Positions 2,802 through 26,751 are shown, counted from the whole stretch's first letter. The stretch: DNA of 40,970 nt, filler included, from an uncultured virus (IMG/VR IMGVR_UViG_2049941000_000602) (3 parts of one record of this genome joined end to end with filler, not necessarily neighbours in it); one strand, 5' to 3'. Translations and numbers: made by a program. The notes: generated from the letters alone by a model not told the origin.

Positions 2802-3218
2802 ATGGAAACTCTACACTTAAACATCAAGAAGGACAAGGACGGAAAGCTCGCGCCAATCTTCCCGACCTACGACTGCACCACCGATTTCGACGACGAGTCG
2901 TCCTACCCGGTAATGGAACGTGACGAGAACGGCGAGTATTACTGGAGGAATGAGGCTGACCGTCTCGTAGTGCGACAGCAAATCGCACTATTCCGCGCCC
3001 GAGCAAAGGCTGCCCGGTATAAGCTGCAGATGTTTTCCATAATCGACCAGCACCAGCATTATACCCCGGTGAACATGGAAGGCATCGCATATCCGATGAG
3101 AAAGATGAACGTTATGCACTATGCCTACGTGTGGGTGGGCATCTGGTTCACCGTGCACAAGCGGTGCAGCGAGTATGCAACGAAGCTTGAACAGTACATG
3201 GACTCAATCAAAGAATGA
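2802..3218 (+). CDS. hypothetical protein
   Basis: 138 aa, AAGG RBS, ATGA overlap. Confidence 0.75.
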   Translation: METLHLNIKKDKDGKLAPIFPTYDCTTDFDDESSYPVMERDENGEYYWRNEADRLVVRQQIALFRARAKAARYKLQMFSIIDQHQHYTPVNMEGIAYPMRKMNVMHYAYVWVGIWFTVHKRCSEYATKLEQYMDSIKE

Positions 3219-3667
3219 TTCGCAACGCATGCTACATAGCGATAATCCTGCACTTCCTCCGGAAGATTTTCCGTAGGGTCTTGCCGCCTACACTGCGGGA
3301 CGGAGTCCACCGGTATCGCGTGATGATGGGTCCTTACAAGGACGACAACATCGGCTCGCTGGCCGCAGTCGTCGCATCCACCAGCGACATCGTGCTCGCA
3401 CAGAGAATAGCGAACGAAATCAACGGCGGCAAGGGAGTCAGCCTGTACATCGTCTCCTTCCCCGACATGAGAGTGCTGGACCTCATTACCTCATTCCCGG
3501 AGGACAAGGAAGAGGACATCAGATATTTCGAATCGGAACTCCCGGATATGTCCTTCTGGCCAATCTTCGGTGACACCGGGGGGTCGCACATCCAGCCACG
3601 CATCAGGGACAGGATACGGGCCATCGCCGCAAAGTATGGCCAGAGCTACGAAACAACCGATACATAG
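3215..3667 (+). CDS. AxY-FLR N-terminal module family protein
   Basis: MIRNACYIAIILHFLRKIFRR. Confidence 0.8.
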   Translation: MIRNACYIAIILHFLRKIFRRVLPPTLRDGVHRYRVMMGPYKDDNIGSLAAVVASTSDIVLAQRIANEINGGKGVSLYIVSFPDMRVLDLITSFPEDKEEDIRYFESELPDMSFWPIFGDTGGSHIQPRIRDRIRAIAAKYGQSYETTDT

Positions 3668-3678
3668 AGAGGAACGAC

Positions 3679-4108
3679 ATGATTACGATAAGCAAGTATT
3701 TCCCGGGATTCGCCATGCCCGACAGTGATGCGGAGTATTGCCGCACCAAATGCGCTACCCCGGAAGAAGCAATCAGGAGCGAGTGCTGGCAGGAACGCGT
3801 CGGCGACAGCAAGCTCCAGTATGCGGATTACGAGAAGGTGGGAAAAGAAATGGTGTTCTTTGACGGCAAGTGGGGTTCCATCGTCGCCANNNNNNNNNNG
3901 CGCTACCCCGGAAGAAGCAATCAGGAGCGAGTGCTGGCAAGAACGCGCCGGCGACAGCAAGCTCCAGTATGCGGATTACGAGAAGGTCGGGAAGGAAATG
4001 GTGTTCTTTGACGGCAAGTATGGTTCCATCGTCGCCAAGGCAGACACCGTGGAAGAAATGCAGGCGTTAATCGACCTGGCGGGAATCAAACCAGGACATT
4101 GGTGGTGA
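3679..4108 (+). CDS. hypothetical protein (assembly duplicate across gap)
   Basis: GAGGA RBS; sequence before the gap at 3890-3899 is repeated after it. Confidence 0.7.
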
Positions 4109-4112
4109 AATT

Positions 4113-4769
4113 ATGAGCAAGAACGATAAAAACAATGGCATTGTCAACTGTACAGGTACAGGAAAATTCTACCCTGGGTCGGGGTTGCCCGAGGTTGTTA
4201 CCGAGGATTACCGGCTCGAACCCGGCGCCAGGGACCGCGAGGAGATAAAGGGTCTCAAGGAATTCGAGGTCGAACCAATCAAGGCCGGCGAACGGTTCTA
4301 CATCCCGCTTCCATGGCAGCTTGGCGGCGACATGGACGAGCAGAAGTATCAGCTTGGCGTGGCACTGAAGGACATCCCGGCGACCAAGACGTTACTTAAA
4401 CCTTACATTACCGGACTTTTCGGCAATTCCACCGTCCTAAATGCATGTAAAAGATATAGCCTGGCCACCAATCTTGCAGGGAAGCCGGGCGAGGCAAAGA
4501 CCGAACCCGAACAGCACATCACCAGAACACAGACGCTCAATTGGCACGATGCCAGGAAGGATATCCCGGAGATGAACCGGGTCTGCCTAATCAAGGTACC
4601 TGACCGTCCCTGGTGTTTCACCGGCAAGGGCGACATCAAGCAGGATGTAGTATATCTCGACTTTCGCCAGACATTCAACAAAGGGGAGCTGCCGTACGTT
4701 TTCCGCCAGTTCGGTCCCGGAACCTTCGACTACAACGAAGTGACCGAGTGGGCCTACCTGGACGAATAG
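4113..4769 (+). CDS. hypothetical phage protein, DUF551-like C-terminus
   Basis: WHDARKDIPE...VTEWAYLD pattern. Confidence 0.6.
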   Translation: MSKNDKNNGIVNCTGTGKFYPGSGLPEVVTEDYRLEPGARDREEIKGLKEFEVEPIKAGERFYIPLPWQLGGDMDEQKYQLGVALKDIPATKTLLKPYITGLFGNSTVLNACKRYSLATNLAGKPGEAKTEPEQHITRTQTLNWHDARKDIPEMNRVCLIKVPDRPWCFTGKGDIKQDVVYLDFRQTFNKGELPYVFRQFGPGTFDYNEVTEWAYLDE

Positions 4770-4820
4770 TACTGGCAAAATCGTGCGAAAAATTCGACTG
4801 ACACGCCGTGCCGGTCGTTT

Positions 4821-4833
4821 TTTGCTATATTTG
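4821..4833 (+). promoter_or_regulatory. class I promoter
   Basis: tttgctatatttg, 38 nt before ATG 4872. Confidence 0.75.
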
Positions 4834-4871
4834 TTACATAACGATATAGCACAATCAAAATAGGCATAACA

Positions 4872-6559
4872 ATGGACTACAAGAAAATCTACGACCTCTT
4901 CATCGAAGACAGACGCCAGCATCCCACCGGGGAAATCCGCGCGGAAATCCACCACATCATCCCGATTTCGGCAGGAGGTGACGTAAAAGAAGCCAACTGC
5001 ATCCGTCTTTCAATCAGGGACCACGTATTCGCCCACAAGGTTCTCCGTAGGCTCGGTCTCGACCCTACCGGACCCCACAAGAGGATGTCCAAGGCAATCG
5101 CCGCCGAAGTCTACGCCAGGATGGCAGACCAGCCCGTCGCGGCATACGGCAGGGGAAAGACCTCCGTCTCCGTCAAGGTCCTCGCCAAGATGGTAAAGAA
5201 GAAAGAGAAGGAACTCATCGAGCTCGGCAACGAGATGACCGACAAGTTCCTGCAGATTATCGACCCCGGCGTCGAGAAGTATGCCTACCGCATCGGACGC
5301 GCAAAGAAGTTCAATACCAAGGTGCTTACCTTCTTCGCCAACATGGTCCCGTGCATCTCAATCGAGCGTCTCGACCGCCTTCCCCAGAATGATTCCCGGG
5401 AACTCCCGGACGAACCCGAGAAGTTCTCGGGACGTTCCGAGTTCTATTCCAGCTGGGCCGCCGATAACAAGATTTTCCTCAGTTACGAAGGGCAGGTGAA
5501 GCAGTCGTTCTTCCCGACGAAAATCAACGAGAAGTTCCTGAAATGCAACGCCTGGCAGGGACTCCTGTTCCGCTGGGTATACCCGGCGCTCAAGAACCTG
5601 TATGACGACATCATGAACCACGGAGGCAGGATGAAGCCCGAAGGGGCCGTAATCTGCCGCAGCGAGGAGGAATTCAAGCAGTTCCGCGTCGAGGCGGCCA
5701 TCTACGGCTACTACATGACGACCAAGCTGAAGCCCGGTACCTACAAGGTCGAGGACATCGTCGGCTGGGCCTGCCAGGGAATCCAGATGCTCCTCCTGCA
5801 GCATACCGCGCTGTACCACCTCAGGGACCTGGCGGACGTGGACTTCGTCGATGTCTACGACACTGCACTCCTGAGACGTCTCCAGGAGTTACCCGGTAAA
5901 GCCCTTGATAGCCAGGATGACTATGATACTTACTTCGAGTGTCTTGCTGCTCAAGTACTGAAACGTGCACTCTGGAACATCGCCTTCACGCAGAAGCGCA
6001 GGGAAGAGCTCATGCCTATTGCTATGCAGGGGGCATACGCAGTAAGGGACCAGCTTCCTACCGCGATTAAGCGTGTACGCGACAACGGTTTCACCGAAAA
6101 GGAAGCGGCGCTCTGGCAAANNNNNNNNNNTGTCGAGAATTATGCCTACCGCATCGGACGCGCAAAGAAGTTCAACACCAAGGTGCTTACCTTTTTCGCC
6201 AACATGGTCCCGTGCATTGCCATCGACCGTCTCGACCGTGTTACCCAGAATNNNNNNNNNNATCAGGGACCTGGCGGACGTGGACTTCGTAGATGTCTAC
6301 GACACGAATCTCCTGCAACAGCTCCAGAAACTCCCCGGTATCATCAGCAATCCCGACCTGTACAACAACCACTACGGCGATGCCGCGGAGAAGGTTCTGA
6401 AGCATGCGCTCGGGAACATCGCCTTCACGCAGAAGCGCAAGGATGAACTCATGCCTATCGCGCTGCAGGGGGCATACGCCGTAAGGGACCAGCTTCATAC
6501 CGCGATTATGCGTGTACGCGACAACGGTTTCACCGAAAAGGAAGCGGCGCTCTGGCAAA
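4872..6559 (+). CDS. HNH endonuclease domain fused to a long unknown region, 3' partial; 6131-6559 are variant copies
   Basis: EIHHIIPISAGG...NCIRLSIRDHVFAHKVL fits the phage HNH pattern. Confidence 0.75.
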
Positions 6560-6808
6560 NNNNNNNNNNNNNNNNNNNNNNNNNNNNNNNNNNNNNNNNN
6601 NNNNNNNNNNNNNNNNNNNNNNNNNNNNNNNNNNNNNNNNNNNNNNNNNNNNNNNNNNNNNNNNNNNNNNNNNNNNNNNNNNNNNNNNNNNNNNNNNNNN
6701 NNNNNNNNNNNNNNNNNNNNNNNNNNNNNNNNNNNNNNNNNNNNNNNNNNNNNNNNNNNNNNNNNNNNNNNNNNNNNNNNNNNNNNNNNNNNNNNNNNNN
6801 NNNNNNNN

Positions 6809-6943
6809 GACAATCCAGTCGACAAGCGGGGCGATTGGCTGCTTTGGGCGGAACCCGAAAAGGGACCCGAAAGCACCGGCGACTGCCTCCACCATCGGGT
6901 TTGTCGGTTCAAGGTCGCTAAGAATTTCGTCTACGTCGCACAT
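6809..6943 (-). CDS. hypothetical protein, 3' partial (EA-motif N-terminus)
   Basis: GGAGG RBS, upstream ATAAACT; MVEAVAGAFGSLF. Confidence 0.6.
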
Positions 6944-6963
6944 ATTTTGCCTCCGCAACGCAC

Positions 6964-6990
6964 AGTTTATATATTTATTTGCTATATTTG
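6964..6990. promoter_or_regulatory. back-to-back class II ATAAACT (-) and class I GCTATATTTG (+) promoters
   Basis: agtttat 6964-6970; gctatatttg 6981-6990. Confidence 0.65.
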
Positions 6991-6993
6991 AAC

Positions 6994-7090
6994 TAGGCTG
7001 AATCCCGCTCATTCCGTAGCGAAAAATGTCCGAGTAACATCTTGGATGGACAAAGCCTACAGGATTCCCAAGGAACCCCGCAAGGAATCC
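6994..7090 (+). ncRNA. candidate structured 5' leader RNA
   Basis: Stems taggct/agccta, cgct/agcg, tgtcc/ggaca and ggattcc/ggaatcc right after the promoter. Confidence 0.4.
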
Positions 7091-7119
7091 ACAGACACAC
7101 CTACACAAGGAGAAATCCG

Positions 7120-7491
7120 ATGAACATTAACGTTCAGCTACCCGATATCGACACCGAAACCAAGCAGCGTGTCGTCAACTACTTCAGCAAGGCCAAGGAC
7201 CTCGGCCAGGTGCTCGTCACCCTCCACCGTGACGACCTCCCGGACACCGTGGAGAAGCTCGAAGTCGTCAGCTTCGCACCGGCATCCGGCAAGAAGGAAG
7301 ACCGCATCATCGACAACGAAATCATCGTCGTCTCCCTGCTTACCCACAAGACTGGCGCGGTCGACATGGGCGTGGTCATCCATACCCGAGTGAACCAGAA
7401 TTCCATGGGCATCCCGTGCGGCACCAAGTCCGAGAACCTGATGTTCAACGGCAAGCATGCCGAATGGCTCCTCGCATTGAAGACCATGTAA
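7120..7491 (+). CDS. hypothetical protein
   Basis: AAGGAG RBS, 123 aa, strong C-ending codon bias. Confidence 0.8.
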   Translation: MNINVQLPDIDTETKQRVVNYFSKAKDLGQVLVTLHRDDLPDTVEKLEVVSFAPASGKKEDRIIDNEIIVVSLLTHKTGAVDMGVVIHTRVNQNSMGIPCGTKSENLMFNGKHAEWLLALKTM

Positions 7492-7492
7492 G

Positions 7493-7735
7493 ATGAAATC
7501 AGTCAGGTACGCAGTATACATCGGCATATTCCTGCACTTCCTGAGGCGCTGCCTCAGGAAGTCCTTGACGCAGGTAACGCATCCGACAATCAACCTGTCC
7601 GGCGAAATCGGCGGTCGTGAATCATTGCCGGAATCTCTACGCCCGGCGTATGACGAGATGGTCACCGAGATGGACCGGGAAACACTCAAGGCGATGGTTG
7701 AAGTCGCACGAGCAGAAAAGCCAAGCTACGGCTTC
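7493..7735 (+). CDS. AxY-FLR module family protein, partial
   Basis: MKSVRYAVYIGIFLHFLRRCLRK. Confidence 0.75.
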
Positions 7736-7865
7736 NNNNNNNNNNACTTCACCGTGACGACCTCCCGGACACCGTGGAGAAACTCGAAGTCGTCAGCTTC
7801 GCTCCGGCATCCGGCAAGAAGGAAGACCGCATCATCGACAACGAAATCATCGTNNNNNNNNNNCG

Positions 7866-8174: not shown

Positions 8175-8210
8175 ACATTGGCGACTTCATACGGTCGCCA
8201 TTCAATCAAT

Positions 8211-8642: not shown

Positions 8643-8652
8643 NNNNNNNNNN

Positions 8653-8791
8653 CATCGTCAACGTCGGCTACATGGAGGTGACCTCCGTGGACACTTCGCA
8701 TGACAAGGACGGGAACGTAATCGCGAAAGTCGGTGTCAACACCATGCTGTCCAGGCCGGTCGAATACGTCGAAATGAAGGTATCGGTTTGA
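8653..8791 (+). CDS. hypothetical protein, 5' partial
   Basis: Stop overlaps the next TTG start. Confidence 0.55.
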
Positions 8792-8876
8792 AGGAACTGA
8801 AATACGCCATATATACAGCAATCTTCCTGCACCAGTGCAGGAAGATTTTACATAAGGTATACAATCCTCGCCCGGC
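8788..8876 (+). CDS. AxY-FLR module family protein, partial
   Basis: MKELKYAIYTAIFLHQCRKILHK (TTG start). Confidence 0.7.
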
Positions 8877-9606
8877 NNNNNNNNNNNNNNNNNNNNNNNN
8901 NNNNNNNNNNNNNNNNNNNNNNNNNNNNNNNNNNNNNNNNNNNNNNNNNNNNNNNNNNNNNNNNNNNNNNNNNNNNNNNNNNNNNNNNNNNNNNNNNNNN
9001 NNNNNNNNNNNNNNNNNNNNNNNNNNNNNNNNNNNNNNNNNNNNNNNNNNNNNNNNNNNNNNNNNNNNNNNNNNNNNNNNNNNNNNNNNNNNNNNNNNNN
9101 NNNNNNNNNNNNNNNNNNNNNNNNNNNNNNNNNNNNNNNNNNNNNNNNNNNNNNNNNNNNNNNNNNNNNNNNNNNNNNNNNNNNNNNNNNNNNNNNNNNN
9201 NNNNNNNNNNNNNNNNNNNNNNNNNNNNNNNNNNNNNNNNNNNNNNNNNNNNNNNNNNNNNNNNNNNNNNNNNNNNNNNNNNNNNNNNNNNNNNNNNNNN
9301 NNNNNNNNNNNNNNNNNNNNNNNNNNNNNNNNNNNNNNNNNNNNNNNNNNNNNNNNNNNNNNNNNNNNNNNNNNNNNNNNNNNNNNNNNNNNNNNNNNNN
9401 NNNNNNNNNNNNNNNNNNNNNNNNNNNNNNNNNNNNNNNNNNNNNNNNNNNNNNNNNNNNNNNNNNNNNNNNNNNNNNNNNNNNNNNNNNNNNNNNNNNN
9501 NNNNNNNNNNNNNNNNNNNNNNNNNNNNNNNNNNNNNNNNNNNNNNNNNNNNNNNNNNNNNNNNNNNNNNNNNNNNNNNNNNNNNNNNNNNNNNNNNNNN
9601 NNNNNN

Positions 9607-10167: not shown

Positions 10168-10524
10168 TCATGCTGTTGCGTGGTTGAGAGCTTCGGCTAT
10201 CTCGGCATAGTCGTTCTTGTTGAACAGCGTCCTCAGCTCCGGGTCGTCCAGTCTGATTATGGTTTCCCCGTCATCGGGCACGAAGGTCCCGTCGACCGCT
10301 ATCTCGGAAGTCCAGCTCAGACTGTCTAGGTACTTTCCCATGTTCCTGAGTACTCCGTAGTTGGGCGACGTGGCTACCAGGACGGTGAAGTCGCGGTTCT
10401 TCCGGTTGCATCCCGGTATGTACAGGCTGTACAGCATGCCGTCACGGGTGATGAACTTCGACAGGAAAATCCTCAGGAAATGCAGGAATATCGAGAGATA
10501 CAATGCGTTGTAGATTGTTTTCAT
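10168..10524 (-). CDS. AxY-FLR module family protein
   Basis: MKTIYNALYLSIFLHFLRIFLSK. Confidence 0.8.
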   Translation of the reverse strand: MKTIYNALYLSIFLHFLRIFLSKFITRDGMLYSLYIPGCNRKNRDFTVLVATSPNYGVLRNMGKYLDSLSWTSEIAVDGTFVPDDGETIIRLDDPELRTLFNKNDYAEIAEALNHATA

Positions 10525-12353
10525 ACTTCGTATACCACTCTGCCGATGCGTTTGAACTGTTCAATCATGTCCTTCACCGGCTCGGTAAATGACCACCCGA
10601 CGCCGAAGAAACGCGGGCCCTTGCCAACGGCGAGGCCTAGCTTTACTTTCTGTCCGTTCCAGTTCAGCCACCACAGGTACTTCTTGTCCTTGTCCCGTTC
10701 AAGCCGGACTGTACTGCTGGATACCTTAAGGTACTCCGGGGTGTCCATGTACGGCATGTCGAATACGTGGTCCTTGGTAATCACTTTGATGCCGTGTATG
10801 ACAAAGGCTTCAAAGATGAAATCCCTTACTGCATTGTTCGCGTACTTGAGGCGGTCCTCGAACTGCACGAAGTCGGCATAGCGGCGCATCTGGTCGATAA
10901 GGGCGGGCTTGGCTGTGCCCGTAGAACACGGATGGTCATCGAGTGTCACGACCGTACCAGGAACTCCATGGACATGGATATGGTGTACACCGAATGCGCG
11001 GAATACGTAGATGCTCTTGGGACCGATACGGAACCGAGTAGCGGTATTGCCGAAGAACGTACTCTTCTTGTTTTTCAGGAACGCCTCGTAGCACATTGAA
11101 ACCCGATGCGTACGGAGCGTGCCGTCAAGGCCCGGGNNNNNNNNNNGAGGACAGAATCTTGCCGGTCTGGCAGGACACGATTACCCACGGGGCATCCTCG
11201 CCCTTCGAGTTCTTGTGGCCCTTCCGGTATTCCACGTGTTCTACCAGGGGTTTCCCGGAGACACCGGCGGCTTCGTCCATCGGACGGCTTGCATTTACCC
11301 TGGCAGCATCAAGTATTTCCGGGACAGTGAATGCATCGTTGAATATGTCTATGCCGAGAGCCAGGGCGATTTCCTTCATGATGATGCATCGGCTCGCCTC
11401 ATCCCCGTTTATTGCACGGACGACCGCGGGGTCGNNNNNNNNNNTCGACTTCCGACTGGATTTGCCGGCGAGACCGGGAGCGCTTGCCGCGCTTCCGTTT
11501 TTCCTTGGGCTTACCCGGTGTCTTCGTCCGGCAAAAGGTCTTCTTTAGAAAATCCAAAAACATNNNNNNNNNNAGCAGTATTGCCGAAGAACGTACTCTT
11601 CTTGTTTTTCAGGAATGCCTCGTAGCACATCGAAACCCGATGCGTACGGAGCGTGCCGTCAAGGCCTGGGGTAAGCCCCATGAGTACAGTCTTCTTTCTA
11701 AGCTGCAGCACGGTTGCAATAAGGTCGTTATGCTGCTTGGACATATAGGCATTCACGCCGTCAGCCAGGATTTGGTCCAGCTTGGCGAAATCGGTTTCCT
11801 TCTGGGAGAAACTGGTATCGATGTTGAAGTTGCCGTAATACACGTCCCGATAGAAATCATATCCGTACTTGACACAATCGGGTTCGATGGTGTAGTGTTT
11901 GATGGAGAACTTCGGCTTGCACATGATTCTGTCCGGGTATACCCTGGCAATTTCCACGCTGTTCACGATGTCGCGCTCGTCATCGTCCAGCTTCCTTACT
12001 TCATCGCGACCGATAATTCTTCCGAGCGACACGGGCCCATAAGGGAACGAAAAAGTATGCTCGTCGGATTGCATGATATTGTTGCCAAAGAACTTGCATG
12101 CTAGTATGTCATTGGGTGCCATGACTAGTCGGCAAGACACGCTTCCGTCATCTTTTTTGGGATGGCAGAATATGATGTGCTTGTTAGCAGCCAGTTTAAA
12201 ATTTAGATGCTCCCGGATTTGCGCCATCGATAACAAACTATCCTTTGGCGTACCGGTCAGGTCCGATTCCTTTATCAGTTTGTGCAGGTAGCCATCTACG
12301 TTCACGCTCAGCAGGTGGTCATACGTGATAATTATGTGCTTAAACTGTTTCAT
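10521..12353 (-). CDS. hypothetical protein split by scaffolding (11574-12353 plus 10521-11136)
   Basis: Both pieces share the sequence encoding PGLDGTLRTHRVSMCYEAFLKNKKSTFFGNTA. Confidence 0.7.
11147..11434 (-). CDS. interleaved gene fragment
   Basis: Open frame ...PLVEHVEYRKGHKNSKGEDAPWVIVS... between gaps. Confidence 0.5.
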
Positions 12354-14608: not shown

Positions 14609-14771
14609 CGTCCCGGCTAGAAGCGTCGACCTTATTCGGGAATAGGTCGCAAGGCCGTATTTTGTCTTGAATATGATGAAATCCTGCCCTTTCTGGCCAT
14701 AAGGCAATTCGCTCTTCCTTATTCGGANNNNNNNNNNNNNNNNNNNNNNNNNNNNNNNNNNNNNNNNNNNN

Positions 14772-14783
14772 TTAATTAATTAA
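14772..14783. other. artificial contig linker
   Basis: TTAATTAATTAA inside an N run; identical at 18379-18390. Confidence 0.95.
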
Positions 14784-14827
14784 NNNNNNNNNNNNNNNNN
14801 NNNNNNNNNNNNNNNNNNNNNNNNNNN

Positions 14828-15164
14828 TGGCGATGTAGAATGCCGGCACGCATGCGATTTCGACTGACACGCCGAGCATCACGAAGCCGGCTATGAATAC
14901 GACGGTGGACAGCACGGCGCCGAGCCTCGGGTTCTTCTCGATTGTCCTCCCGAATATCGCTGCGCACATGCCGAGGAAGAAGATTATCAGCGTGAAGCCG
15001 ACGTCGGTCGCCATCCGGCCCATGCCGAACACCCGCATCAGCTCCGGGGCGAACTGGCTCCAGCAGTAGACCGAGCCTATGCAGGTCGTCAGGGCTACCC
15101 CGGGAATGGCGCAGTTCAGCCATCTGTTTGGTACTTTCTGTGGCTTTTTCATGTCATTGTCCAT
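14828..15164 (-). CDS. MFS transporter (OFA/OxlT-like), N-terminal part
   Basis: NRWLNCAIPGVALTTCIGSVYCWSQF plus several hydrophobic helices. Confidence 0.8.
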
Positions 15165-15179
15165 AACTGTGTACCGGTT

Positions 15180-15234
15180 GTTTATGGCGGCACCCTTCTC
15201 CAAACTAGACAATTTTTGCTATATTTGGGGTATG
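15180..15234. promoter_or_regulatory. back-to-back class II (-) and class I (+, leaderless ATG 15232) promoters
   Basis: gtttat 15180-15185; gctatatttg-gggt-ATG. Confidence 0.65.
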
Positions 15235-15368: not shown

Positions 15369-15378
15369 NNNNNNNNNN

Positions 15379-15499
15379 ACTTCATCGAGGTAAACTTAGC
15401 TGGCGGTTTACGCTTAACTTGTCGGAATGCCTTCCGAACCACCTTCCTGAGGAAGGAGATGAATATCGCTACATATATGCCAATGGCTACTGACCGCAT
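15379..15499 (-). CDS. AxY-FLR module family protein, partial
   Basis: MRSVAIGIYVAIFISFLRKVVRK. Confidence 0.7.
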
Positions 15500-15790: not shown

Positions 15791-16405
15791 TACAGTATCG
15801 CGAGCACCAGGTAGAGCGAGCTGCCCGTGAACGTGTTCGCCAGGAGTGGGCCGAGGATTCCGCCCACGCTCCACCCGGTAAGGGTCAGCGAGTGGACCCT
15901 GGAGGCGTTGCCCATACCGAACCGCTTCGCCAGCAGGCTGGGAAGCACGCTGAAGTTGCCCCCGTAAGCGGCCTCGCACAGGAGGATTCCGATTATGCTG
16001 AGCACGGGGTTCCCGGTGAGACAGAACATCGCCCCGAGGATGCCGAAACTGCACACGAAGTGGTAGCTTGCCTTCCTACCTATCCTGTCGGACAGGCTGG
16101 AGAACCCCAGGCGTCCCCCGGCGTTCGCCAGGGCTGTACCCGAGAGTATGGCGCCTATCGCCCCTATGCCGAGCCCTGTGAGGAGCCCCTTCTCCTGCGA
16201 GATTATCGACAGGCCGCAGGATATGTTCACCATGAACATGAACCAGATGGCCCACCACTCCCGGCTTTTAAGTATGAGCGAGTAGCGGAAGTCGGAATGT
16301 CCCCACTCACGGTCCGCGTCTGGGTACTTCCGGAGCAGCACGGTGGAAGCCACCATGACCAGGGCGTATACCGCCCCCATGGAATAGAATACCTGCGGGA
16401 GCGTA
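15791..16405 (-). CDS. MFS transporter (OFA-like), C-terminal part
   Basis: NAGGRLGFSSLSDRIGRK (MFS motif A), YGGNFSVLPSLLAKRFG. Confidence 0.85.
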
Positions 16406-16415: not shown

Positions 16416-16656
16416 AGACGTAGTATCCAAGAAATCCTATGTCAACGACCTAGCAAGGACGACCGCGTACTTCACCATCCTGCGCCATTTCTTCAAGGCC
16501 GGCCTCAAGAAGTATTCGGCAAAGATGCCCGAGATGGACAAGATGGAGGTCCGCGCAATCCTGACCCGGAACAGGGACAAACTTATCGAAGGACTTACCA
16601 GAAATGACGACAGCACCCAAGACGAAGGAAAAGAACACTCCCAAGAAGGCAAGTAA
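16416..16656 (+). CDS. hypothetical protein, 5' partial; loose AxY-FLR-like segment
   Basis: ARTTAYFTILRHFFKAGLKK. Confidence 0.55.
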
Positions 16657-17133: not shown

Positions 17134-17152
17134 CCCCTACATGGAACGCCAA

Positions 17153-17572
17153 ATGAACAAATTCAAGGAACACATCTTCAACGCCTCGTACCTCGCCATC
17201 TTCCTCTACGGGATGCGCCGTATCGTACGGAGGATTCGCCCCATCTCGTTCGACGACGCCTACTCGCTCGTCGCCGGCCTCGTGAAGCGCCAGGGAGAAC
17301 CAATCTTCCTCGTGCACAGGGACGGAACCTACTACCACGTCGCCAACGCCCCGGAGAAGTACCACCGTGACGTTGTCGGCGCAATCGCGGGCGCGTTCGG
17401 AAATCTCAGGCACAACCAGTGGTCAAAGGTGGTCGCGAACAACAACGCGACCGAACATCTCGACAAGGTAGTGTGGAACACCCCGCTGACCAAGCTCCTC
17501 ACGCCGGAAATGCAGAACCGCATCCCGGTCCTCGCACAGAATCTCAAGAAGGCATACGGGGAGAACAGATGA
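17153..17572 (+). CDS. AxY-FLR module family protein
   Basis: IFNASYLAIFLYGMRRIVRR. Confidence 0.75.
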   Translation: MNKFKEHIFNASYLAIFLYGMRRIVRRIRPISFDDAYSLVAGLVKRQGEPIFLVHRDGTYYHVANAPEKYHRDVVGAIAGAFGNLRHNQWSKVVANNNATEHLDKVVWNTPLTKLLTPEMQNRIPVLAQNLKKAYGENR

Positions 17573-18099
17573 GATACGAGAAGCCGGAATACGAGGGCGA
17601 CTCCCGCCCGGAAACCCAGAAGCATATCGACAAGGTGAACGAGTTCGGCAAGCAGTTCGCCGACAAGCTCAAGTCGAGGCTTATCCTGCATGACGCGTCC
17701 AAGCTGATTGAGCCGGAATGCAAGTTTTTCGACAAGGGCACCCCGAACCTCGCGTCGAGTACCTACGGCGAGAAGAGCTACGACGATGCCAAGGATTCAA
17801 TCAAGGAAGGCATCGAGCACCACTACAAGATGAACGACCATCACCCTGAGCACTTCGGAGACGCCGGGATTGCCGGGATGAACCTGTACCAGCTGGTGGA
17901 AATGTACCTTGACTGGCGTGCCGCGTCTCTCCGCCACAAGGACGGAAACATCTTCAAGAGCATCCAATACAACAAGGACCGTTTCAATATGGACCCGCAG
18001 GTGTACGGCATCCTCCTGAACACGGCCATTGTCGATTCTCCGGAGCTGTTCCCTGACGCCCCGGACGAAGTAAAGGAATACCTGAAGGGCAAACTATGA
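17569..18099 (+). CDS. DUF5662-like HD-domain protein
   Basis: KH...HDASKL...HHYKMNDHHPEHF...EMYLDWRAA. Confidence 0.8.
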   Translation: MRYEKPEYEGDSRPETQKHIDKVNEFGKQFADKLKSRLILHDASKLIEPECKFFDKGTPNLASSTYGEKSYDDAKDSIKEGIEHHYKMNDHHPEHFGDAGIAGMNLYQLVEMYLDWRAASLRHKDGNIFKSIQYNKDRFNMDPQVYGILLNTAIVDSPELFPDAPDEVKEYLKGKL

Positions 18100-18287: not shown

Positions 18288-18434
18288 TGTACTTGTCGAC
18301 AATCTCGCCGATGGTGTCGTAGGACTTCGGCTTCNNNNNNNNNNNNNNNNNNNNNNNNNNNNNNNNNNNNNNNNNNNNTTAATTAATTAANNNNNNNNNN
18401 NNNNNNNNNNNNNNNNNNNNNNNNNNNNNNNNNN

Positions 18435-20835
18435 ACGAGCTTGACCAATTCCTCAGTAATTCAGATTTCGACGAACAGTTCTCCCGTGCCATTTCCCACG
18501 CGGCATGGGCCATGTTCGAGGCTACCAACATCAACAAGGACTTCCTCAAGAGGGAAGCCGCCGCCACCGGCGACGAGAACAGGTTCCAGACGGCGAAGCA
18601 GTCCGTGCAGTCCCTGTGGACGCAGGAGGACATGACCCGCCAGCTGAACGAGAAGGCCGCGCAGAAGGTGCTCAACTTCCTGTACCTCATGGAAATCCGC
18701 GAACCCGGTTTCACCACCGCAGACAAGCTCCACGCAATCCACGACCTCTATGTCGGCAACATGCTGGACACCAAGTTCCTTTCGCTGGTAAACTCCGACA
18801 CGACCCCTGGCCAGGCTGCACAGGTTCTTGCCAGCGCCACGGAACACCAGGCGAACTCCGCAAAGGTTTACCCTGACCTTACGGCNNNNNNNNNNACTCC
18901 CGACAAGCACTCGAACAACCAGTACTGGGAACTCCGCGGGCCCGACGGGAAGGCCTACCTTACCGTAATCCTTTCGCCTGAAGGCAAGATAGAGGAATCC
19001 AAGTCGTGGGGAAACCAGCCAAACAAGTACCGCAGAATGATTCAGCCGTACGTCAAGTGGTTCCTCAAGAACAAGGTCACCGGGGTCGGCTACAGGTACG
19101 ACTACGGTTACGCCACGCACAACAACTTCGGCGTCAAGGACTTCATGGGCGACGACCCGGAATTCATCGAATACGTATCGGAAAATAAGCCGGAACTGTT
19201 CGGCAATACCGAGAAGCGGATAATGTTCTGGAAGGAGGCAATCAACCAGGGAGTCGTCACGGTTGACGACATCAAGCGCATGTTCGCGGAAGGTTTCACG
19301 TTGGAGCAGGCGATGAGGACGTTCGCCCCCCTCCGCGAATACCACAGTGGTTCCCGGTTCAACGACTGGGGTGAAGGCAGGCGCACCCGGTACAGCTACG
19401 GCTCGTCTTCGCAGAGCATATTCGGAAGCAACCCGTTCGACGTGGTGTGCGCAGCATGCGACGGCTGCCCGTTCAGCAAGGAAGAGCTGAAGTCCCTAAT
19501 CATGAACAAGAAGGTCAGTCTCGAGGAATTCGCCAACTACGACATCCACCTCCTCACGCCGGAAATGCAGAGGAACTTCGTGTCTGCCGACGCATACAAC
19601 CTCCACAGACTCATGCAGATTGCTTCCGAGGTCGGCACCTTCGAGGTAGCCAACGACATAGTCATGCCGCTGGTCGAGACGGTGAAGGAGCCAAAGCCGG
19701 TTCCTCCCAGGGGATACGAAGAAATGACCTGGCAAGAACGTAACAACAGCTCGGCGGCAAAAAAGTACGAGGATACTATCAGCCGGTGGGAAGGCGCGCT
19801 CGACTACCTGCGCAAGTACTTGAACGAAACCAACCCGCCTGAAAAGGCCAGGCCCGTGGTAGACGCCATATTCGGCGACCAAGAGACGGTAAACCGCATT
19901 TTCAGCGACGGTTTCGGTCATTCCCGCTATAGATACTACTACAACCGTGAAGTCGATTCCTGGCTGAACGTGTTCGCCAGGTTCCGCGACCTGGAAATCC
20001 CGCCACAGGTCAATGAATACCTTGCACACTACCTGTTCGTCGAGCCAAGGAAGAGCCACGACACTGTCGACCTGGTAATCAAGATAGGAAGGCCGCGGAT
20101 AGACGCCCTGTTCGCCAACCGCACGCCCAAGGAAATAGCAACCGCCTGCATCGACACAAGCAGCCACCTCAAACTCGACGCCAGGAACCTCCTACCCAGC
20201 GTAAAGAACATGGGCGCAATCGTAGAGATGTTCCCCGAATACGCGAACATATACGACGTGCTCCGCCCGTCCCTCAAGCTCGGCTACATGTGCTGCGCAC
20301 CGAGGGAAAGCATAGACGTGAACGCCGCCGTGGCACTCGCGGTCAAGCAGATTCGCAAGGGAGAGAACATCCCGTCAAACCCCAACGCCATGCTCAGCGC
20401 CACCGGGGCGGCCACGATGCTGGCCATCAGCAGGTTCCCCGAAATCCTGGAGCAGGTCACGGCGGAGGAGATAGGCGACTACGTGTTCCCGCAGGCGGAC
20501 ATGATTGAGCACACCTATATCCCGGACGGCCCCATGATGCTCAGCGAGCACCTCGTCGGCATCCTCAAAGAAGCGTACCGCTCGTACGACCAATCTAAGC
20601 GGATATCCTGGGCGACCGACGCCGCCAAGATATTCATGGACGCCAGCAGCCAGTGCGACACGGTGAAGCCCGGCGACCCGATATTCAACGAGGTATTCCT
20701 GGACATGCTAAGGGGTTCATACAGGTACGGAACCACGTATGAGAAAATGACCGGCTACCGGTTCTACCCGGACATCCCGAAGGAACAGTGGGACGATGCC
20801 GCCAAGTACATATCCCCGAATTATCCGGCCGAAGC
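18435..20835 (+). CDS. large hypothetical protein, partial; possible PcfJ-like segment
   Basis: About 800 codons; YWELRGPDGKAYLTV...SWGNQP; continues at 25032-24182 on the minus strand. Confidence 0.75.
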
Positions 20836-21177: not shown

Positions 21178-22394
21178 ACATGTTCTCCCGCGAGATAGAG
21201 GACGCTAGTGCCGCGGAGAGGCAGGAGTTCGAGAATGCCAAGAGGAGCCCGACCGGTTACGAAATTATAGTCCTGGACGATTTCGATAAGGCCCATGAGT
21301 TCCTGAAGTATACCCCGGAAGATTCGCCTTGGTGCTACCTGCAGAATAAGGCAACGTTCGAGGACTACAAGTCGAATGGAAATAAGTTGTACCTGGCGCT
21401 GGCGCCAGGATTCGAGAATCTGAAACCAGGGGACAAGGGTTATGGCAGGTCGATGATTGGGTTCGACATGGGGCCGGTCGATGCGCGCGGGATGTCCAAG
21501 ATGCAGGTATGCAACAACAGGTACAACCATGCGCCCGACCTGGAGAACGAGAACGACAGGAGCGGAGACTCGAAGTACACCGAAATCGAACTGGCGGAAA
21601 TACTGGGAATACCCATATGGAAGGATTGCCCGGGATATTCCGAGGAGGAACTTATACAATCAGGTCACATAAACCGGTCAATACTGGAGAGGATGTTCCC
21701 TGATTTTGAGTCGCTGAGGCGTGCCGTGCTGTACAAGCAGGACGCTATTGTGGAGGAATTGGGGGTACGCATCGAGTGGCGCCAATTCGCATCCCTGCAG
21801 CCGTTCGAATTCATGAATGCCCACAACGACCTGATTATCTGCTATGCTATACCCAACCAGGAGACTGACGAGCTGACTTACTTTGACATGTACAGGCGGG
21901 TCAGCGGCGACATCTACGCGATAACCGATATCGGCAAGGGAAGCAAGCTTGTTGATGAGACCGGGAAGATTCTCAACGATACCTGGTTCCACCAGATTGG
22001 CAAGCCGGACTCGTCCGGGTTCCCGGTACCTGTAGCGCGAAAGAATGCCGACCATACCGTAGAATGGAACCTGCTTGATTCCGATGGGAAAATACTTCTT
22101 GACAGCTGGTACCGGAACCTGAACGGGCCGTATGGCAGAAAGTACATTGTCATCAAGGATGATGACGGTATGGCCAGGCTGTGCCTAGCTGAAACGGGAG
22201 AACCGATATTGGACCCGATGGACACAATCCGTCATAACATAATCGACCAGACCCATGTATTCATGATGGAAAAGGACAGTCTGTTTAATTACTGGGTTGA
22301 CGGAGTATTCCTGTTGGATGAATGGACCAGTTCCCCGATGGCATACGCCGACCTGTATCGGTTGATGAGGAAGAGAAACGGCCTGTCTATCTAG
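21178..22394 (+). CDS. phage protein with WC motif and WG-like repeats, 5' partial
   Basis: SPWCY...FEDY...GNKLY, NNRYNH; repeats LVDETGKILNDTWF and LLDSDGKILLDSWY. Confidence 0.7.
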
Positions 22395-22726
22395 CGTAGG
22401 CCAAATTCCTTCAGTATCCCGATTATTTCAGTTATGTACTCGTCGTAGTAGTAGGACGGCAGAGTCGGGTCGTCTAGTTCCGCCGTGCTTGGGAATGCCG
22501 GATTGCCGATGGAAAGCACTTCATCCTGCCATTCGTGCTCAATCATCTTGTCCTTGATTGCATTGAGCAGCACCGAGTTGTCCGACGTGTGTATCCGGAC
22601 GGATATGTCGTCGCCCCTAAGGTTAAGCCATAGGGTCCTCTCGACCCCGTCCGGGATTATCTTGCTTAGAATCATCCTCGTGAAATAAATCAGCATTGCC
22701 AGGTATGCGGCGTGATATATTTTCAT
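22391..22726 (-). CDS. AxY-FLR module family protein
   Basis: MKIYHAAYLAMLIYFTRMILSK. Confidence 0.8.
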   Translation of the reverse strand: MKIYHAAYLAMLIYFTRMILSKIIPDGVERTLWLNLRGDDISVRIHTSDNSVLLNAIKDKMIEHEWQDEVLSIGNPAFPSTAELDDPTLPSYYYDEYITEIIGILKEFGLR

Positions 22727-23184
22727 TTGGTCCGGTCCCTTATAATCTGGATTGCACCGGCCATATCGTGCAGTCGCTTGTGTGCGGCTGATGCCATGCG
22801 CGTGTTGAGTCCAACCAGCTTGTCGTGCATGAGCTTGGTTGCCGATGGGTTTCCGTGGAACTGGTACATCGGGGCGTCCCATATCGGCATGATATACCTG
22901 ATGTTGTTGGCCTTGGCATAGTCGGCAACCTTGTTCACCGGAAGCAGCAGGGTTGTCCATAGTGTCGATGGCGATATACTCTCGGACTCCACGGTAGTTA
23001 CTGCCTGTGCAAGCACTATTATGAGCACGTTGTCACTGATTTTTCCATACCCGCCAACATTCCGGTTCGGGTGTATCGCCGTTACCATATACCTAACATT
23101 TGTGCTAGGTATAATCCTGGCTGCAATCTTCCTGAGGAAGTGCAGGGTGATGGCCATGTATGCAGCGTTCCGTATGCCAATCAT
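22723..23184 (-). CDS. AxY-FLR module family protein
   Basis: MIGIRNAAYMAITLHFLRKIAAR. Confidence 0.8.
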   Translation of the reverse strand: MIGIRNAAYMAITLHFLRKIAARIIPSTNVRYMVTAIHPNRNVGGYGKISDNVLIIVLAQAVTTVESESISPSTLWTTLLLPVNKVADYAKANNIRYIMPIWDAPMYQFHGNPSATKLMHDKLVGLNTRMASAAHKRLHDMAGAIQIIRDRTK

Positions 23185-23767
23185 TGGTTGACCCGCAGTT
23201 CCTTCGTACACAGCGTTCCGCAGCACGGGCACTTCGCGTGGAGCCACGTGTACGTATGGCCGCCGAACTTCCCGCCACACCCGGTGGTAGACGTGCGCTC
23301 GCACTGGTCTGCCGGCAGGTTGAACTCGCACCCGCATCCCCTGCACACGAAACACATCCTGACAGGCTCCTTGGTGATTATGTATTCCAGCTTCTTGTCT
23401 TCGCCGAACGAGTCCATCTTTCCCGGCTCGACATTGGAGAACCAGTCCAGTATCTCGCGCATGTTCTTCTCGGCGTCCGTTTCCCAGTCTATCTGGAAGC
23501 TGTGGAACAGGCATTCAGTTTCCTTGCGCCAGTGGATGTGCGTGAGATAGTTGACATCCCCGGGTTGCTCCGAGCGGCCCCCGATACACACCACGATATG
23601 GTGCCCGGAACTGTCCNNNNNNNNNNGAACTTCCACGCCTTCCTGATGTACCACGGGAGAATCCCGGGGGTCACCGGGATTTCCTCGGCGTCCATGAGCT
23701 TGAGTGCCGGGAGCGCCTCGTGAACCTTGTCGAGGGCGTCGGTAAACTTATCTTCTTTCTCTGCCAT
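23181..23767 (-). CDS. hypothetical protein with C-terminal zinc ribbon (gapped)
   Basis: MAEKEDKF start at 23767; CRGC...CPCC; join across the gap is assumed. Confidence 0.6.
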
Positions 23768-23769
23768 GT

Positions 23770-24162
23770 CTACATTTCCTTTCCGATGATTTGGTTGAAC
23801 AACGTTTCTTTTCTCGTTCCGGCCGGAGGCATCCACTGCCACATTCGCTTTGCAATCTCGTCGGCGAGGTTCTTGTCCTTGAAGGCTACCTGGACCGAGT
23901 CCGGCGTTTCCCCGTCTATTATCCGGAAGCGGTCCTTAGGGACACCTAGGGCTACCGCGATTGCATCGGCAAGCCCCCGGGGACTCATGTTGACTGCCGG
24001 GATGTCGAAATTCCAGTCCCGCGTCATGTCCTTGGAATGCTTGGGTGCGCAGTCGTAATGGTACTGCGTTTCCTTGCGTGGAGGTCTAAAAACCTTCGCC
24101 AGGATTTTCCTGGCGAAGGCTATTACGATTGCACAGTAAACTGCTATCCGAATCGACCTCAT
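23770..24162 (-). CDS. AxY-FLR module family protein (leaderless)
   Basis: MRSIRIAVYCAIVIAFARKILAK; ATG 5 nt after TATATTTG. Confidence 0.8.
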   Translation of the reverse strand: MRSIRIAVYCAIVIAFARKILAKVFRPPRKETQYHYDCAPKHSKDMTRDWNFDIPAVNMSPRGLADAIAVALGVPKDRFRIIDGETPDSVQVAFKDKNLADEIAKRMWQWMPPAGTRKETLFNQIIGKEM

Positions 24163-24181
24163 CGACCCAAATATAGCAATT

Positions 24182-25032
24182 TTATTTTTGCTTCATCGGG
24201 AGTTCTCCCTCTTCTGCCTTGTATTTCTGCGTGGTTTTCCCCAGCTGGTCAAGTTTGTCTATCCTGCTGACGAATTCAGGGGACATGTCGTGGTCCATGA
24301 ATTCACGTCGGCCGCATTCGACGTACATTGTACGCAGCATACGCTTGCCCGGGCCGAACCGGTCGGCAACCATCCGGTATGCATCAAGCAAACCTGATTG
24401 CCTTGCCAGCTTTGCGGCCGCCAGGCAAGTTGGGGTTTTCGGGGAGGCAAGGACGAAGTCCGCAACACGGCGGAAATCATGGAACATCATGGACGCCGCG
24501 GCATCAAGATAACCTTCATCCAGGTCGGATTGGTTGCATCTCATATCGTACTGTTCCAGGATTGCCCTCAGTAGCTCGTTGACGAAGTACGGGAAATTCC
24601 TTGACTTCTTGTACTGCTTGAGCACCCTCTCGGAGCACATATGCTCGAGCTGTTCGGATACGGTCTCGTCGATGTCGGATTCCGACTGCTCGTCGAACCT
24701 CCTGTTCTGCGCCTGCACGAGGAAGTCCTTGTTGAGGAGCCCGTTCCTGTTAAGTTGGTCCGCACGCTCGAGCGAGATGTCTTCGCCGGCGTTGATGCGT
24801 TCCGTGATGGCGCGCTTCACCCTGTTGAGAATATGGCGCTTCCTGAACTTGTCGTCGACGAGGACGCTGTATGTGGATTCCGCCGGGTCGAGTATGAAGT
24901 CGACGAGGTATTTGTACATGTCCTCGTTCTCGGCGAACCTGCCGTTGTTGAGCGCGGGGAGAATGTATTTCTTGATGAACTCCTTCTTGGCTTCGGCCGG
25001 ATAATTCGGGGATATGTACTTGGCGGCATCGT
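24182..25032 (-). CDS. C-terminal part of the large 18435-20835 protein
   Basis: About 43 nt exact overlap encoding DAAKYISPNYPAEA. Confidence 0.8.
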
Positions 25033-25042
25033 NNNNNNNNNN

Positions 25043-25679
25043 ATACGATATGGACGACATGGCAAAGTCGCTCAAGAAACGCATCTACGAGTGGGCTACA
25101 GCGGTGGTCGACGTGCACAACTCCCCGGCATGCGACAACGCAATCCTCGTATCCAACGACAAGTTCGCCCCGGCATACATCAGGTTCGCCATCAAGCACG
25201 GCATACACTACATGCTCCGCGAATCTGCAGCGAACACCATCAAGCGTTATGCCGTATACAGCGGACGCATCGGCTTCACTGTCGAGATGGGCGGTATGGG
25301 ATTCGCCCCTGGGTTCAAGGACACCATAGAGAAGCAGACCGACTTCGTGTACAGGCTCCTGGCCGCGCTCGACGGCGAACCGACAACATCGTTCCTCTCG
25401 TCCAGTAGCGACCTGCACATCCCGCAGCAGTACAATATGTTCCCGCTGCATGCCCACTACCAGGGCATCGTGCGACACCAGTTCGCCCCGGGAGATTCCA
25501 TAAAGCAAGGCGATATCGTGTTCGAGATTCTTACCCCGAACACCACCGCCGTACTTGAAGAAATAACCGCTCCGTGCGACTGTATCCTGGCAGACTGCGA
25601 TGACAGGCTATGGTCTACGCCGGGCATGGAAGTATGCAGTGTCCAGCCCATCATTCCCAAGGAGATAGTAAATGGATAG
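25043..25679 (+). CDS. succinylglutamate desuccinylase/aspartoacylase (M14) family, C-terminal part
   Basis: VVDVHNS, GFTVEMGG, lipoyl-like tail PGDSIKQGD...EITAPCD. Confidence 0.75.
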
Positions 25680-25899
25680 GTTCACTTTCAAGCAGATTAT
25701 GATTCTCGTCTGTACGGTGGCGGGGCTGTTCCTCGTGTTCATCGGTATGATGGTGGGAAACATCAGCAGTGTAACTACCAGGGTATGCGAGGGCGATTCC
25801 CCGTGCAAGTCCTATACCGTGGAAGTAAGGAACGCGAACATCGCAGGCGACGCCCTGTCCGAACTTTCCGAACGCATAATCACTGGAATCAAGCAATAG
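25672..25899 (+). CDS. small membrane-anchored protein
   Basis: AAGGAG RBS; N-terminal hydrophobic helix. Confidence 0.7.
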   Translation: MDRFTFKQIMILVCTVAGLFLVFIGMMVGNISSVTTRVCEGDSPCKSYTVEVRNANIAGDALSELSERIITGIKQ

Positions 25900-25907
25900 T
25901 GACGTTC

Positions 25908-26333
25908 ATGCGCCCGGTCTACATGGCATTCTACCTCTCAATCGTCCTGGGATTCCTCAGGGCGATTTTCAGGAAAGCGCTCACATACAAGGCAGACTAC
26001 GACAAGACCGCAAAGTACTTCCTTATAGCCACTGATTACCACGACTCGTCAATATGCATCCTGCTAGGAAAGATAGCGGAACCGCCTGACTTCCGCGGGT
26101 GGCAAGAGCACCTGTGCAACAAGTTCGTGAACGAAAACGGATTCAGCGAAACACTCGGCACAGCGGTAGTGCAATGGGCGGACCTAGCAGGCATACCGAA
26201 CGAAGAAATCAACTCCCCTGAATCCCAGTATACCGACTGGATGAACGAGCGGCTTGAACGTGCTGCAATTAAGCTTGCCAGGGAATATCCGTGGTTCATA
26301 CCAACAATTTTCAACGACTCAGACTTTCCGTAG
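25908..26333 (+). CDS. AxY-FLR module family protein
   Basis: MRPVYMAFYLSIVLGFLRAIFRK. Confidence 0.8.
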   Translation: MRPVYMAFYLSIVLGFLRAIFRKALTYKADYDKTAKYFLIATDYHDSSICILLGKIAEPPDFRGWQEHLCNKFVNENGFSETLGTAVVQWADLAGIPNEEINSPESQYTDWMNERLERAAIKLAREYPWFIPTIFNDSDFP

Positions 26334-26337
26334 TAAG

Positions 26338-26751
26338 ATGCATAATTCCATCTATCGCGCATTCTATGTTCTTCTAGTAATCAGGTTCCTCCGGACTACT
26401 GTCAGGAAGCTGCTTGTACCGCACAGGAAATTCCGTAACAAATGCAAGTTCGGCCTGTACGCCGTGCCAAAAGGCGAACACGTCACGCTCCACTTCGCAA
26501 ACGTCTATGTGGATGACCCGAGTGACATGGACAACTCGACACTGTTCCATGACCTCGGCGTAACCATGAGCAGGTGCCACGTATTCGCCATAGCGGATGG
26601 AAACAACGAGTACCCGTTCCACCAATTCATTCAGCCAGACAAATACCAAGGCCAACTGTCAGTATCGCTTGATACGAAAACAGTCGTACATACGATAGAC
26701 CACATACTGTACGACTTTGTCGGGCCGAACGACTACGACTTTTTCTTTTAA
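26338..26751 (+). CDS. AxY-FLR module family protein
   Basis: MHNSIYRAFYVLLVIRFLRTTVRK. Confidence 0.8.
   Translation: MHNSIYRAFYVLLVIRFLRTTVRKLLVPHRKFRNKCKFGLYAVPKGEHVTLHFANVYVDDPSDMDNSTLFHDLGVTMSRCHVFAIADGNNEYPFHQFIQPDKYQGQLSVSLDTKTVVHTIDHILYDFVGPNDYDFFF

Follow-up and report, generated by a model that had tools for sequence, protein, structure and literature searches.

Excerpts of two published accounts present the internal proteins of phage T4 as a diverse set sharing only a conserved N-terminal targeting sequence, and T4-type internal proteins are thought there to be effectors in an arms race (PMC3012670, PMC9026906); the second excerpt gives the N-terminal propeptides as 10-19 residues long and states that prohead processing requires Glu (PMC9026906). 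Here we describe a family of small proteins that begin with a common segment of about 25 residues (the module) and are encoded eleven times in a 40,970-base stretch of DNA from an uncultured virus (IMG/VR IMGVR_UViG_2049941000_000602), the whole of which is called the window below. Like the T4 proteins with a capsid-targeting sequence (CTS), as far as the excerpts cover these, the family has a short conserved peptide at the extreme N-terminus of diverse small phage proteins. Unlike them, it has a module of some 25 residues that is hydrophobic and then basic, lacks a conserved Glu cleavage site, and recurs in 11 to 21 copies per genome; the comparison is one of features, not of sequence.

Other systems invite comparison as well. 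T4-type phages undergo modular shuffling at short repeats, namely promoter-early stem-loop cassettes. There as here, short repeats at gene boundaries are the homology by which small accessory genes are gained, lost, or exchanged; the present repeat, however, is not an intergenic promoter with a terminator hairpin but in-frame coding sequence, the first ~25 codons, and recombination in it would thus yield functional chimeric proteins. Bacterial peripheral membrane proteins such as MinD, FtsA, and MreB have terminal amphipathic helices for membrane targeting, conserved in character rather than in sequence, and the module resembles these: a short helix at the terminus, hydrophobic on one face and bearing basic residues, is joined by a flexible linker to a soluble domain. 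It differs in that two of its faces carry near-invariant residues (Y, R, A, F, and I), that the first 14 residues are hydrophobic throughout, and that the helix is common to about 20 paralogs per genome. Finally, the markers of secreted effectors such as MIX or LXG are folded domains of at least 100 residues tied to a known secretion system. With such effectors the family shares a conserved N-terminal marker, a diversified C-terminal part, and many paralogs, whereas its marker consists of one helix, for which no machinery is known.

A loose regular expression for the module, ..Y.[A-Z][ILMV].[ILV]...R....[KR], matched the six frames of the window exactly 11 times, 5-12 residues past a start codon in each case and always at one of the 11 sites listed in the original prediction, compared with 0.94 ± 1.01 matches (maximum 4) in 200 block shuffles. 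A profile built from the 11 modules scores these sites at 40.5-50.8 bits, and a relic at 2707 at 16.6 bits; no other match in the window exceeds 10.2 bits, and of the five that come next, four are reverse strands of modules (3276-, 8846-, 10457+, and 24095+). The listed starts therefore do carry the module. The relic is likewise real: it lies at 2707..2754 on the plus strand and consists of the 13 first module residues and 2 other codons, 15 codons in all, followed by a stop. A loose match that had been reported near 16450 is background, at -1.3 to 2.8 bits by the module profile. The fixed Y-x8-R spacing is found in 11 of 11 copies. Eight of the 11 members are complete, with 111-153 amino acids (aa); assembly gaps cut m7493 at 7736, m8788 at 8877, and m15499 at 15378, for which P0063, P0065, and P0084, respectively, are full-length relatives.

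On the plus strand lie m3215 (3215..3667; complete, 150 aa, module at residues 1-21; 49.1 bits), whose orthologs are 78-89% identical; m7493 (7493..7735; 81 aa seen up to the 10-N gap; 50.8 bits), with a different, helix-rich body type and a full-length relative of 147 aa; m8788 (8788..8876; 29 aa seen; 43.7 bits), which opens with TTG at the same residue as its 125-aa relative; m17153 (17153..17572; complete, 139 aa, alternative start at 17141; 43.1 bits), of a subfamily with an N-terminus 4 residues longer (relatives P0058, P0073, P0074, and P0083); m25908 (25908..26333; complete, 141 aa; 43.7 bits); and m26338 (26338..26751; complete, 137 aa; 40.5 bits), whose body belongs to a cluster of 16. 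The minus strand encodes m10524 (10168..10524; complete, 118 aa; 45.9 bits), m15499 (15379..15499; 40 aa seen, gap at 15369-15378, relative of 169 aa; 45.5 bits), m22726 (22391..22726; complete, 111 aa; 41.6 bits), m23184 (22723..23184; complete, 153 aa; 44.5 bits), and m24162 (23770..24162; complete, 130 aa; 44.7 bits). Three of these starts overlap a stop codon as ATGA, those of m10524 and m23184 with the stop of the respective upstream gene, and that of m22726 with the stop of m23184. Directly upstream of m8788 is a C-terminal fragment of an m7493-type body (8654..8791, plus strand), the translation of which matches the C-terminus of P0135 (alignment A6); the gap at 8643-8652 has removed its N-terminal part, and it may be the end of m7493 or a twelfth member.

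Searching 1.84 billion representative proteins with the module-only profile (E<=0.001) returned 110 cluster representatives (50% identity), nearly all of 47-170 aa with the module at residues 1-28; two long multi-hit proteins, P0060 and P0150, are repetitive false positives. The median length of family proteins is 136 aa (5th-95th percentile 100-161 aa). The module is thus no generic N-terminus, since the 110 representatives nearly all have one architecture. It also has no named family, as the original prediction had it: PHROGs and Pfam assign the 11 window members to 0 families and give no match on the module of 66 relatives. Pfam yields for these relatives a single sub-threshold match (Gp23, 17.8 bits against a cut-off of 24.4), and PHROGs match body parts only (phrog_14392 at 3e-7 for P0080 and at 0.0025 for P0125, and two more at E>0.002). 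A 222-kb IMG/VR contig (CheckV completeness 78%) holds 21 module matches together with a terminase match, and some of its module genes stand in back-to-back arrays with a spacing of about 420 nt; the family grows by tandem duplication. The 11 window genes are thus part of a large family of small proteins from bovine-gut metagenomes that has no name and appears restricted to phages, and this family is previously undescribed. Among viral contigs, the related-loci search with m3215 gave 1 close relative (L001) and 1 weak match, and that with alignment A4 gave 35 pattern matches, 0 of them confirmed; the search with P0005 in species genomes found none. A degenerate DNA pattern of the module picked out 84 stretches in species-representative bacterial genomes, without a true member among them (all <=20 bits); this pattern matches just 4 of the 11 window copies, so that it is weak evidence of absence from those genomes.

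We are highly confident of the family and its architecture, in which an N-terminal helix of about 25 residues is followed by a linker and by a body of 85-140 residues. Column statistics were derived from 164 module sequences collected with the profile, for which the consensus is M-[KR]-S-[IV]-[YR]-[NI]-A-x-Y-L-[AS]-I-[FV]-[LI]-H-F-[LA]-R-[KR]-I-L-[RA]-K-[VI]-[LI]-P. The module begins at the initiator Met, with the Tyr at residues 7-10 in 142 of the 164 sequences and at residue 9 in 84. Relative to this Tyr, conservation reaches 96% for A(-2), 87% for I(+3), and 92% for F(+7), and 100% for Y and R, the last figure being partly circular because the collecting profile demands those two residues. 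On a helical wheel, by our own geometric reading, Y/I/F would share one face and A/(A,S)/R the opposite one. Over its first 14 residues the helix is hydrophobic on every side (mean 1.01, hydrophobic moment 0.14), and over the following 14 it is amphipathic, one face being basic (moment 0.48); the net charge of the module is +4.7, and that of the body 0.2 ± 4.3. Bodies of consistent acidity, a hint of DNA mimicry, were not found: 19 of the 52 body clusters described below are net negative.

The hydrophobic core had been called short for a transmembrane helix and its basic residues unlike a Sec signal, and both observations hold. The uncharged run mostly spans 12-15 residues (12 in 68 of the 164 sequences, 14-15 in 50), and one of at least 16 occurs in only 20, short of the ~18 or more consecutive apolar residues of a single-pass transmembrane anchor; the best Kyte-Doolittle window of 19 residues averages 1.25 and reaches 1.6 in 26 of 164. 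A Sec or lipoprotein signal has a basic n-region, a hydrophobic core of 7-15 residues, and then a polar, uncharged c-region with a small-x-small or lipobox site; here R-[KR]-x-x-[RA]-K comes after the core. The column table displays no conserved Cys or lipobox and no A-x-A region, and neither a conserved acidic residue nor another obvious protease site after the module; D and E never exceed 15% in columns -8 to +23.

What is conserved is the protein. Mean pairwise identity among the 11 modules is 0.53, 0.69, and 0.43 at codon positions 1, 2, and 3, respectively, and codon pairs for the same residue use different codons in 46% of cases, against 56% expected from the codon usage of the window. 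The claim of conservation at the protein level over divergent DNA is thereby upheld, and the helix is kept by selection on protein, not on DNA or RNA.

Behind the helix comes a linker of about 8-10 residues that is rich in Pro and basic residues and predicted to be disordered, and then a globular body. These bodies have diverged into at least 52 sequence clusters: phmmer sorted 157 module-stripped bodies into 52. Pairwise BLASTP of the eight complete bodies gave no significant match (best E 0.21), and iterative hidden Markov model (HMM) searches with the bodies merged no clusters. Still, m10524 and m22726 fall into the same cluster and, with 29% identity along the entire length, are clear paralogs. 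When profiles of the bodies only were compared by hhalign, with a reversed-alignment decoy maximum of 6.3%, the m3215 cluster was linked to cluster 7 at a probability of 97%, cluster 7 to cluster 13 at 86%, and the m3215 cluster to cluster 13 at 72%; cluster 7 was further linked to cluster 15 at 35% and, over 92 co-linear columns, to the m25908 cluster at 11%. The bodies of m10524 and m3215 do not match (0.8%), and the clusters of m26338, m23184, m24162, m17153, and m7493/m8788 stayed unlinked by both hhalign and iterative HMM. The m7493/m8788 type opens with a conserved helical EIDREIL-like motif, and one relative of this type matches a 47-residue PHROG without the module. The bodies, originally described as unrelated or only weakly similar, are thus so by BLASTP, and the m7493/m8788 type looks different, but they are not so in the m10524/m22726 pair or among the clusters linked to m3215.

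AlphaFold models were obtained for m10524 (mean predicted local distance difference test, pLDDT, 74.8), with a helix at residues 3-25, a linker, and an alpha/beta body, and for m3215 (pLDDT 86.3, predicted template modelling score 0.73), with a helix at 2-22, a disordered stretch at 23-32, and again an alpha/beta body. In both, the 10-residue block of the linker has a mean pLDDT of 52-53 (residues 26-29 of m3215 fall below 50), and the linker is followed by a beta-hairpin, a helix, a second beta-hairpin, and further helices. Fold searches with the two models against solved and predicted viral structures gave no clear match, and the ESM Atlas no usable one. Many of the bodies appear to be divergent versions of one small alpha/beta domain, though not demonstrably all.

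The module-coding DNA is also where the genes recombine. Compared with L001, an ortholog region of 93% identity, the window has a 468-bp insertion at 2745-3212 that carries gene 2802-3218. On both sides of this insertion stands the 5' part of the module, as a direct duplication of 38-40 nt, and the left copy is the relic. Protein P0022 joins the module of m25908 (21/23 identical) to the body of m26338 (98/113 identical), and P0026 changes between the m25908 and m26338 types in the middle of the module; in the window, m25908 and m26338 are neighbouring genes. P0039 and P0044 place the module start of the m23184 type on a body of the m22726 type, and m23184 and m22726 are window neighbours, too. 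Breakpoints, from chimeras or indels, thus lie inside module-coding DNA in three independent cases. In addition, a contig of the coded runs X5/X6 skips 60 nt at 22657-22718, which removes codons 4-23 of m22726, its module, in frame and gives a natural variant without the module; since X5 and X6 appear to be a single data set filed twice, this counts as one observation. From the three breakpoint cases and this skip, we conclude that the module-coding DNA of about 70 nt is an in-frame recombination handle by which bodies are gained, lost, and exchanged, that is, deleted, fused to the module of a neighbour, or inserted.

The overall explanation that we slightly favour is that of a tethering or docking helix carrying diversified domains; for a docking or anchor role of the helix as such, predicted from sequences and models, we put the chances at about even. 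The helix would be a common tethering or docking element for the variable bodies. Because it could hardly stay exposed in water, it would bury itself at one common site, either on the cytoplasmic side of the host membrane or in a partner or oligomer that all members share, and the diversified bodies would be held there on a flexible leash. This role is favoured because two faces of the helix are near-invariant while the bodies drift, and because the leash is flexible; near-invariant residues on opposite faces (Y, I, F and A, R) would moreover speak for a specific protein contact over mere greasiness. The original prediction had proposed a shared docking tag with diversified payloads, of which the N-terminal unit, the tethered helix, and the chimeras agree with our results, and the notion of simply unrelated bodies does not.

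Small orphan genes are numerous around these genes, and a promoter-like motif of host type, TTGCTATATTTGGG, occurs in 15 copies, counted at no more than 2 mismatches where 0.16 would be expected: 1720-, 1737+, 4822+, 6979+, 12986-, 14592-, 15216+, 15733-, 24166-, 27889+, 29738-, 29764+, 37582-, 37619+, and 39266+. Three pairs are arranged back to back and are divergent. At -12 to -5 the motif contains TAnnTTTG, which the excerpt of a published account gives as the -7 box of Flavobacterium sigma-A (PMC9723704). An ATG follows 2-3 nt past the motif at no fewer than nine sites (at least 9), so that transcripts would begin at or next to the start codon and be leaderless. Together with the rapid diversification of the bodies, this setting suggests that the proteins may be early host-takeover or anti-defence effectors.

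Certain observations weigh against the docking of effectors as just outlined. The skip of 60 nt in the X5/X6 contig means that at least one copy may tolerate the loss of its helix, or may be decaying. The complete conservation of Y and R owes something to the way in which the sequences were collected. Lastly, only 1 of the 11 members, m24162, stands directly behind the promoter-like motif (24166-24179), and that the motif marks early genes is inferred.

The most serious competitor, in our view possible yet doubtful, holds that the proteins are ordinary, very divergent single-domain paralogs and that the helix, without any addressing role, is just the slowest-evolving element of an ancestral fold. 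The original prediction had already set its proposal against such paralogs, and much of the family does look like them, given the links between the m3215 cluster and clusters 7 and 13 (weak for the m25908 cluster, at 11% over a decoy of 6.3%), the full-length alignment of m10524 with m22726, the same order of elements in the two models, and the narrow range of lengths. Yet a low-confidence linker parts the helix from the body in both models, the uniformly hydrophobic N-terminal half is unlike a surface helix of a soluble domain, and natural chimeras carry the module on another body; the m7493/m8788 body type looks different, with its relative that matches a module-less PHROG, and the bodies of m10524 and m3215 failed to match just as iterative HMM searches failed to merge clusters.

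An unlikely but related idea is that the helix would be a sorting signal read by a dedicated machine of phage or host, for loading into the capsid and co-injection or for delivery to a phage-built compartment or membrane platform. One tag could then address at least 20 fast-diversifying effectors, and new ones might arise by in-frame recombination within the tag DNA. Its T4-like form is the most interesting rival: a module acting as a capsid-targeting signal would load small proteins into the prohead for injection with the DNA. The strictly N-terminal position of the module on diversified small proteins would suit this, as would relatives that are jumbo phages. We nevertheless consider it decidedly unlikely, since no D or E is conserved above 15% after the module, the 25 strongly hydrophobic residues are unlike the short T4 tag, and the genes lie among host-type promoter-like motifs and not beside structural genes.

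We regard it as very unlikely that the module is a signal anchor spanning the membrane, or a secretion signal, by which the body would come to lie across the cytoplasmic membrane or outside it. A hydrophobic N-terminal segment with basic residues on either side is there, to be sure, and its N-terminal half averages 1.01 in hydrophobicity. Against this, uncharged runs of sufficient length and Kyte-Doolittle values of 1.6 are confined to the few sequences counted above, the stronger basic cluster after the core would block Sec-type export of the body, and the column table has neither an A-x-A-type cleavage region nor a lipobox Cys.

The codons of F-L-R-K form a near-palindrome, CTTCCTSAGGAAG, and three modules contain inverted repeats of 25-27 nt with perfect arms of 10-12 bp and a 2-5-nt centre (7537-7561, 8821-8846, and, in m24162, 24093-24119 with 27 nt, 12-bp arms, and a 3-nt centre), for which reason a hairpin was put to the test. 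The centres of these repeats occupy two different positions. Randomised synonymous codons served as controls; compared with these, the hairpin region has a somewhat higher stability (mean z -1.24; p<0.05 in 3 of 11 copies), a modest excess due to the three copies with inverted repeats, and the start-codon region is less structured (mean z +1.06), as real translation starts predict. In the alignment of the 11 sequences, the proposed hairpin helix is paired in 65.5% of cells as against 63.8% after shuffling, with 153 of 500 shuffles as high, and RNAalifold found no consensus structure for the 11 copies. An RNA or DNA hairpin as the main cause was rejected after synonymous randomisation, pair counting, and RNAalifold, the modest excess notwithstanding. 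The sequence TTCCTSAGGAAG, tried as a dispersed DNA element, was rejected; 4 of the 11 modules contain it, and the rest of the window does not. TTC, CTG/CTC, AGG, and AAG are simply the commonest codons of the genome for F, L, R, and K, and the palindromy is mostly a by-product, with a small excess of structure remaining. That conservation is due to a nucleic-acid element within the initial 70 nt, be it a hairpin, a palindrome bound by a protein, or a site of recombination, is therefore hardly tenable, despite the near-palindrome, the long inverted repeats, the stability of the hairpin region, and the breakpoints inside the module, for third positions are the least conserved and synonymous sites near saturation.

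As to its origin, DNA near-identical to the window was found in bovine-gut metagenomes of 12 coded studies, and contigs that bear orthologs of window proteins reach 424 and 466 kb; one such contig is labelled in the source as a Fibrobacter metagenome-assembled genome. The element is read as a rumen jumbo phage because the 222-kb IMG/VR contig has the same family and a terminase match and because orthologs occur on contigs of up to 466 kb. Its host is probably a member of the Fibrobacter-Bacteroidetes group, judging from the contig label in the source and the promoter-like motif. By PHROGs and Pfam nearly all open reading frames (ORFs) of the window are orphans, the matched ones being an HNH homing endonuclease, a DUF5662 protein, a radical-SAM protein, and fragments of an MFS transporter; a neighbouring protein of 774 aa had no tblastn match in named phages. 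The HNH N-terminus (phrog_655, 2.1e-14) begins the long ORF 4872-6446(+), the downstream part of which is repeated across the gaps at 6121-6261. The DUF5662 protein (17572-18099(+), 1.8e-31) comes directly after m17153, and the radical-SAM protein (36698-37579(-), 3.5e-13) lies behind one copy of the promoter-like motif.

The window is not continuous: it has 27 ten-N gaps and several longer ones, and two linkers, at 14728-14827 and 18335-18434, that consist of 44 N, TTAATTAATTAA, and 44 N and show that it joins at least three scaffolds of one bin. Many of the 10-N gaps are flanked by near-duplicate sequence (3679-3889 and 3900-4108; 6073-6120 and 6512-6559; 11096-11136 and 11574-11700; others as well), with two peptide versions around 3890-3899; rather than true tandem repeats, these would seem to be contig ends from strain variants that the scaffolder has joined. 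The 10-N gap at 25033-25042 is a scaffold mis-join: a contig of run X7 connects 25043 to 21200 on opposite strands, and after 25032 the contigs of three runs continue differently. The first residues of ORF 24182-25032(-) are the last residues of the 898-aa ORF at 20835, so that the former is probably the C-terminal part of the latter. N- and C-terminal fragments of the MFS transporter (Pfam MFS_1, 2.2e-12), at 14829-15212(-) and 15791-16380(-), flank the phage-like piece with m15499 in the wrong order, which is due either to an artefact of scaffolding or to host DNA contaminating the bin.

Jumbo phages of the gut and rumen consist mostly of orphan genes, and one of their larger families is now defined, with 110 clusters and up to 21 copies per genome. 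Its architecture is simple and testable: an invariant N-terminal helix, a flexible leash, and a hypervariable domain. Recombination within the helix-coding DNA is direct evidence of the route by which the family diversifies. Should the helix prove to be a mere membrane anchor, this would be a useful but ordinary annotation; should it be an address tag, it would offer a handle for finding host-interaction effectors and a portable targeting tag for uncultured systems.

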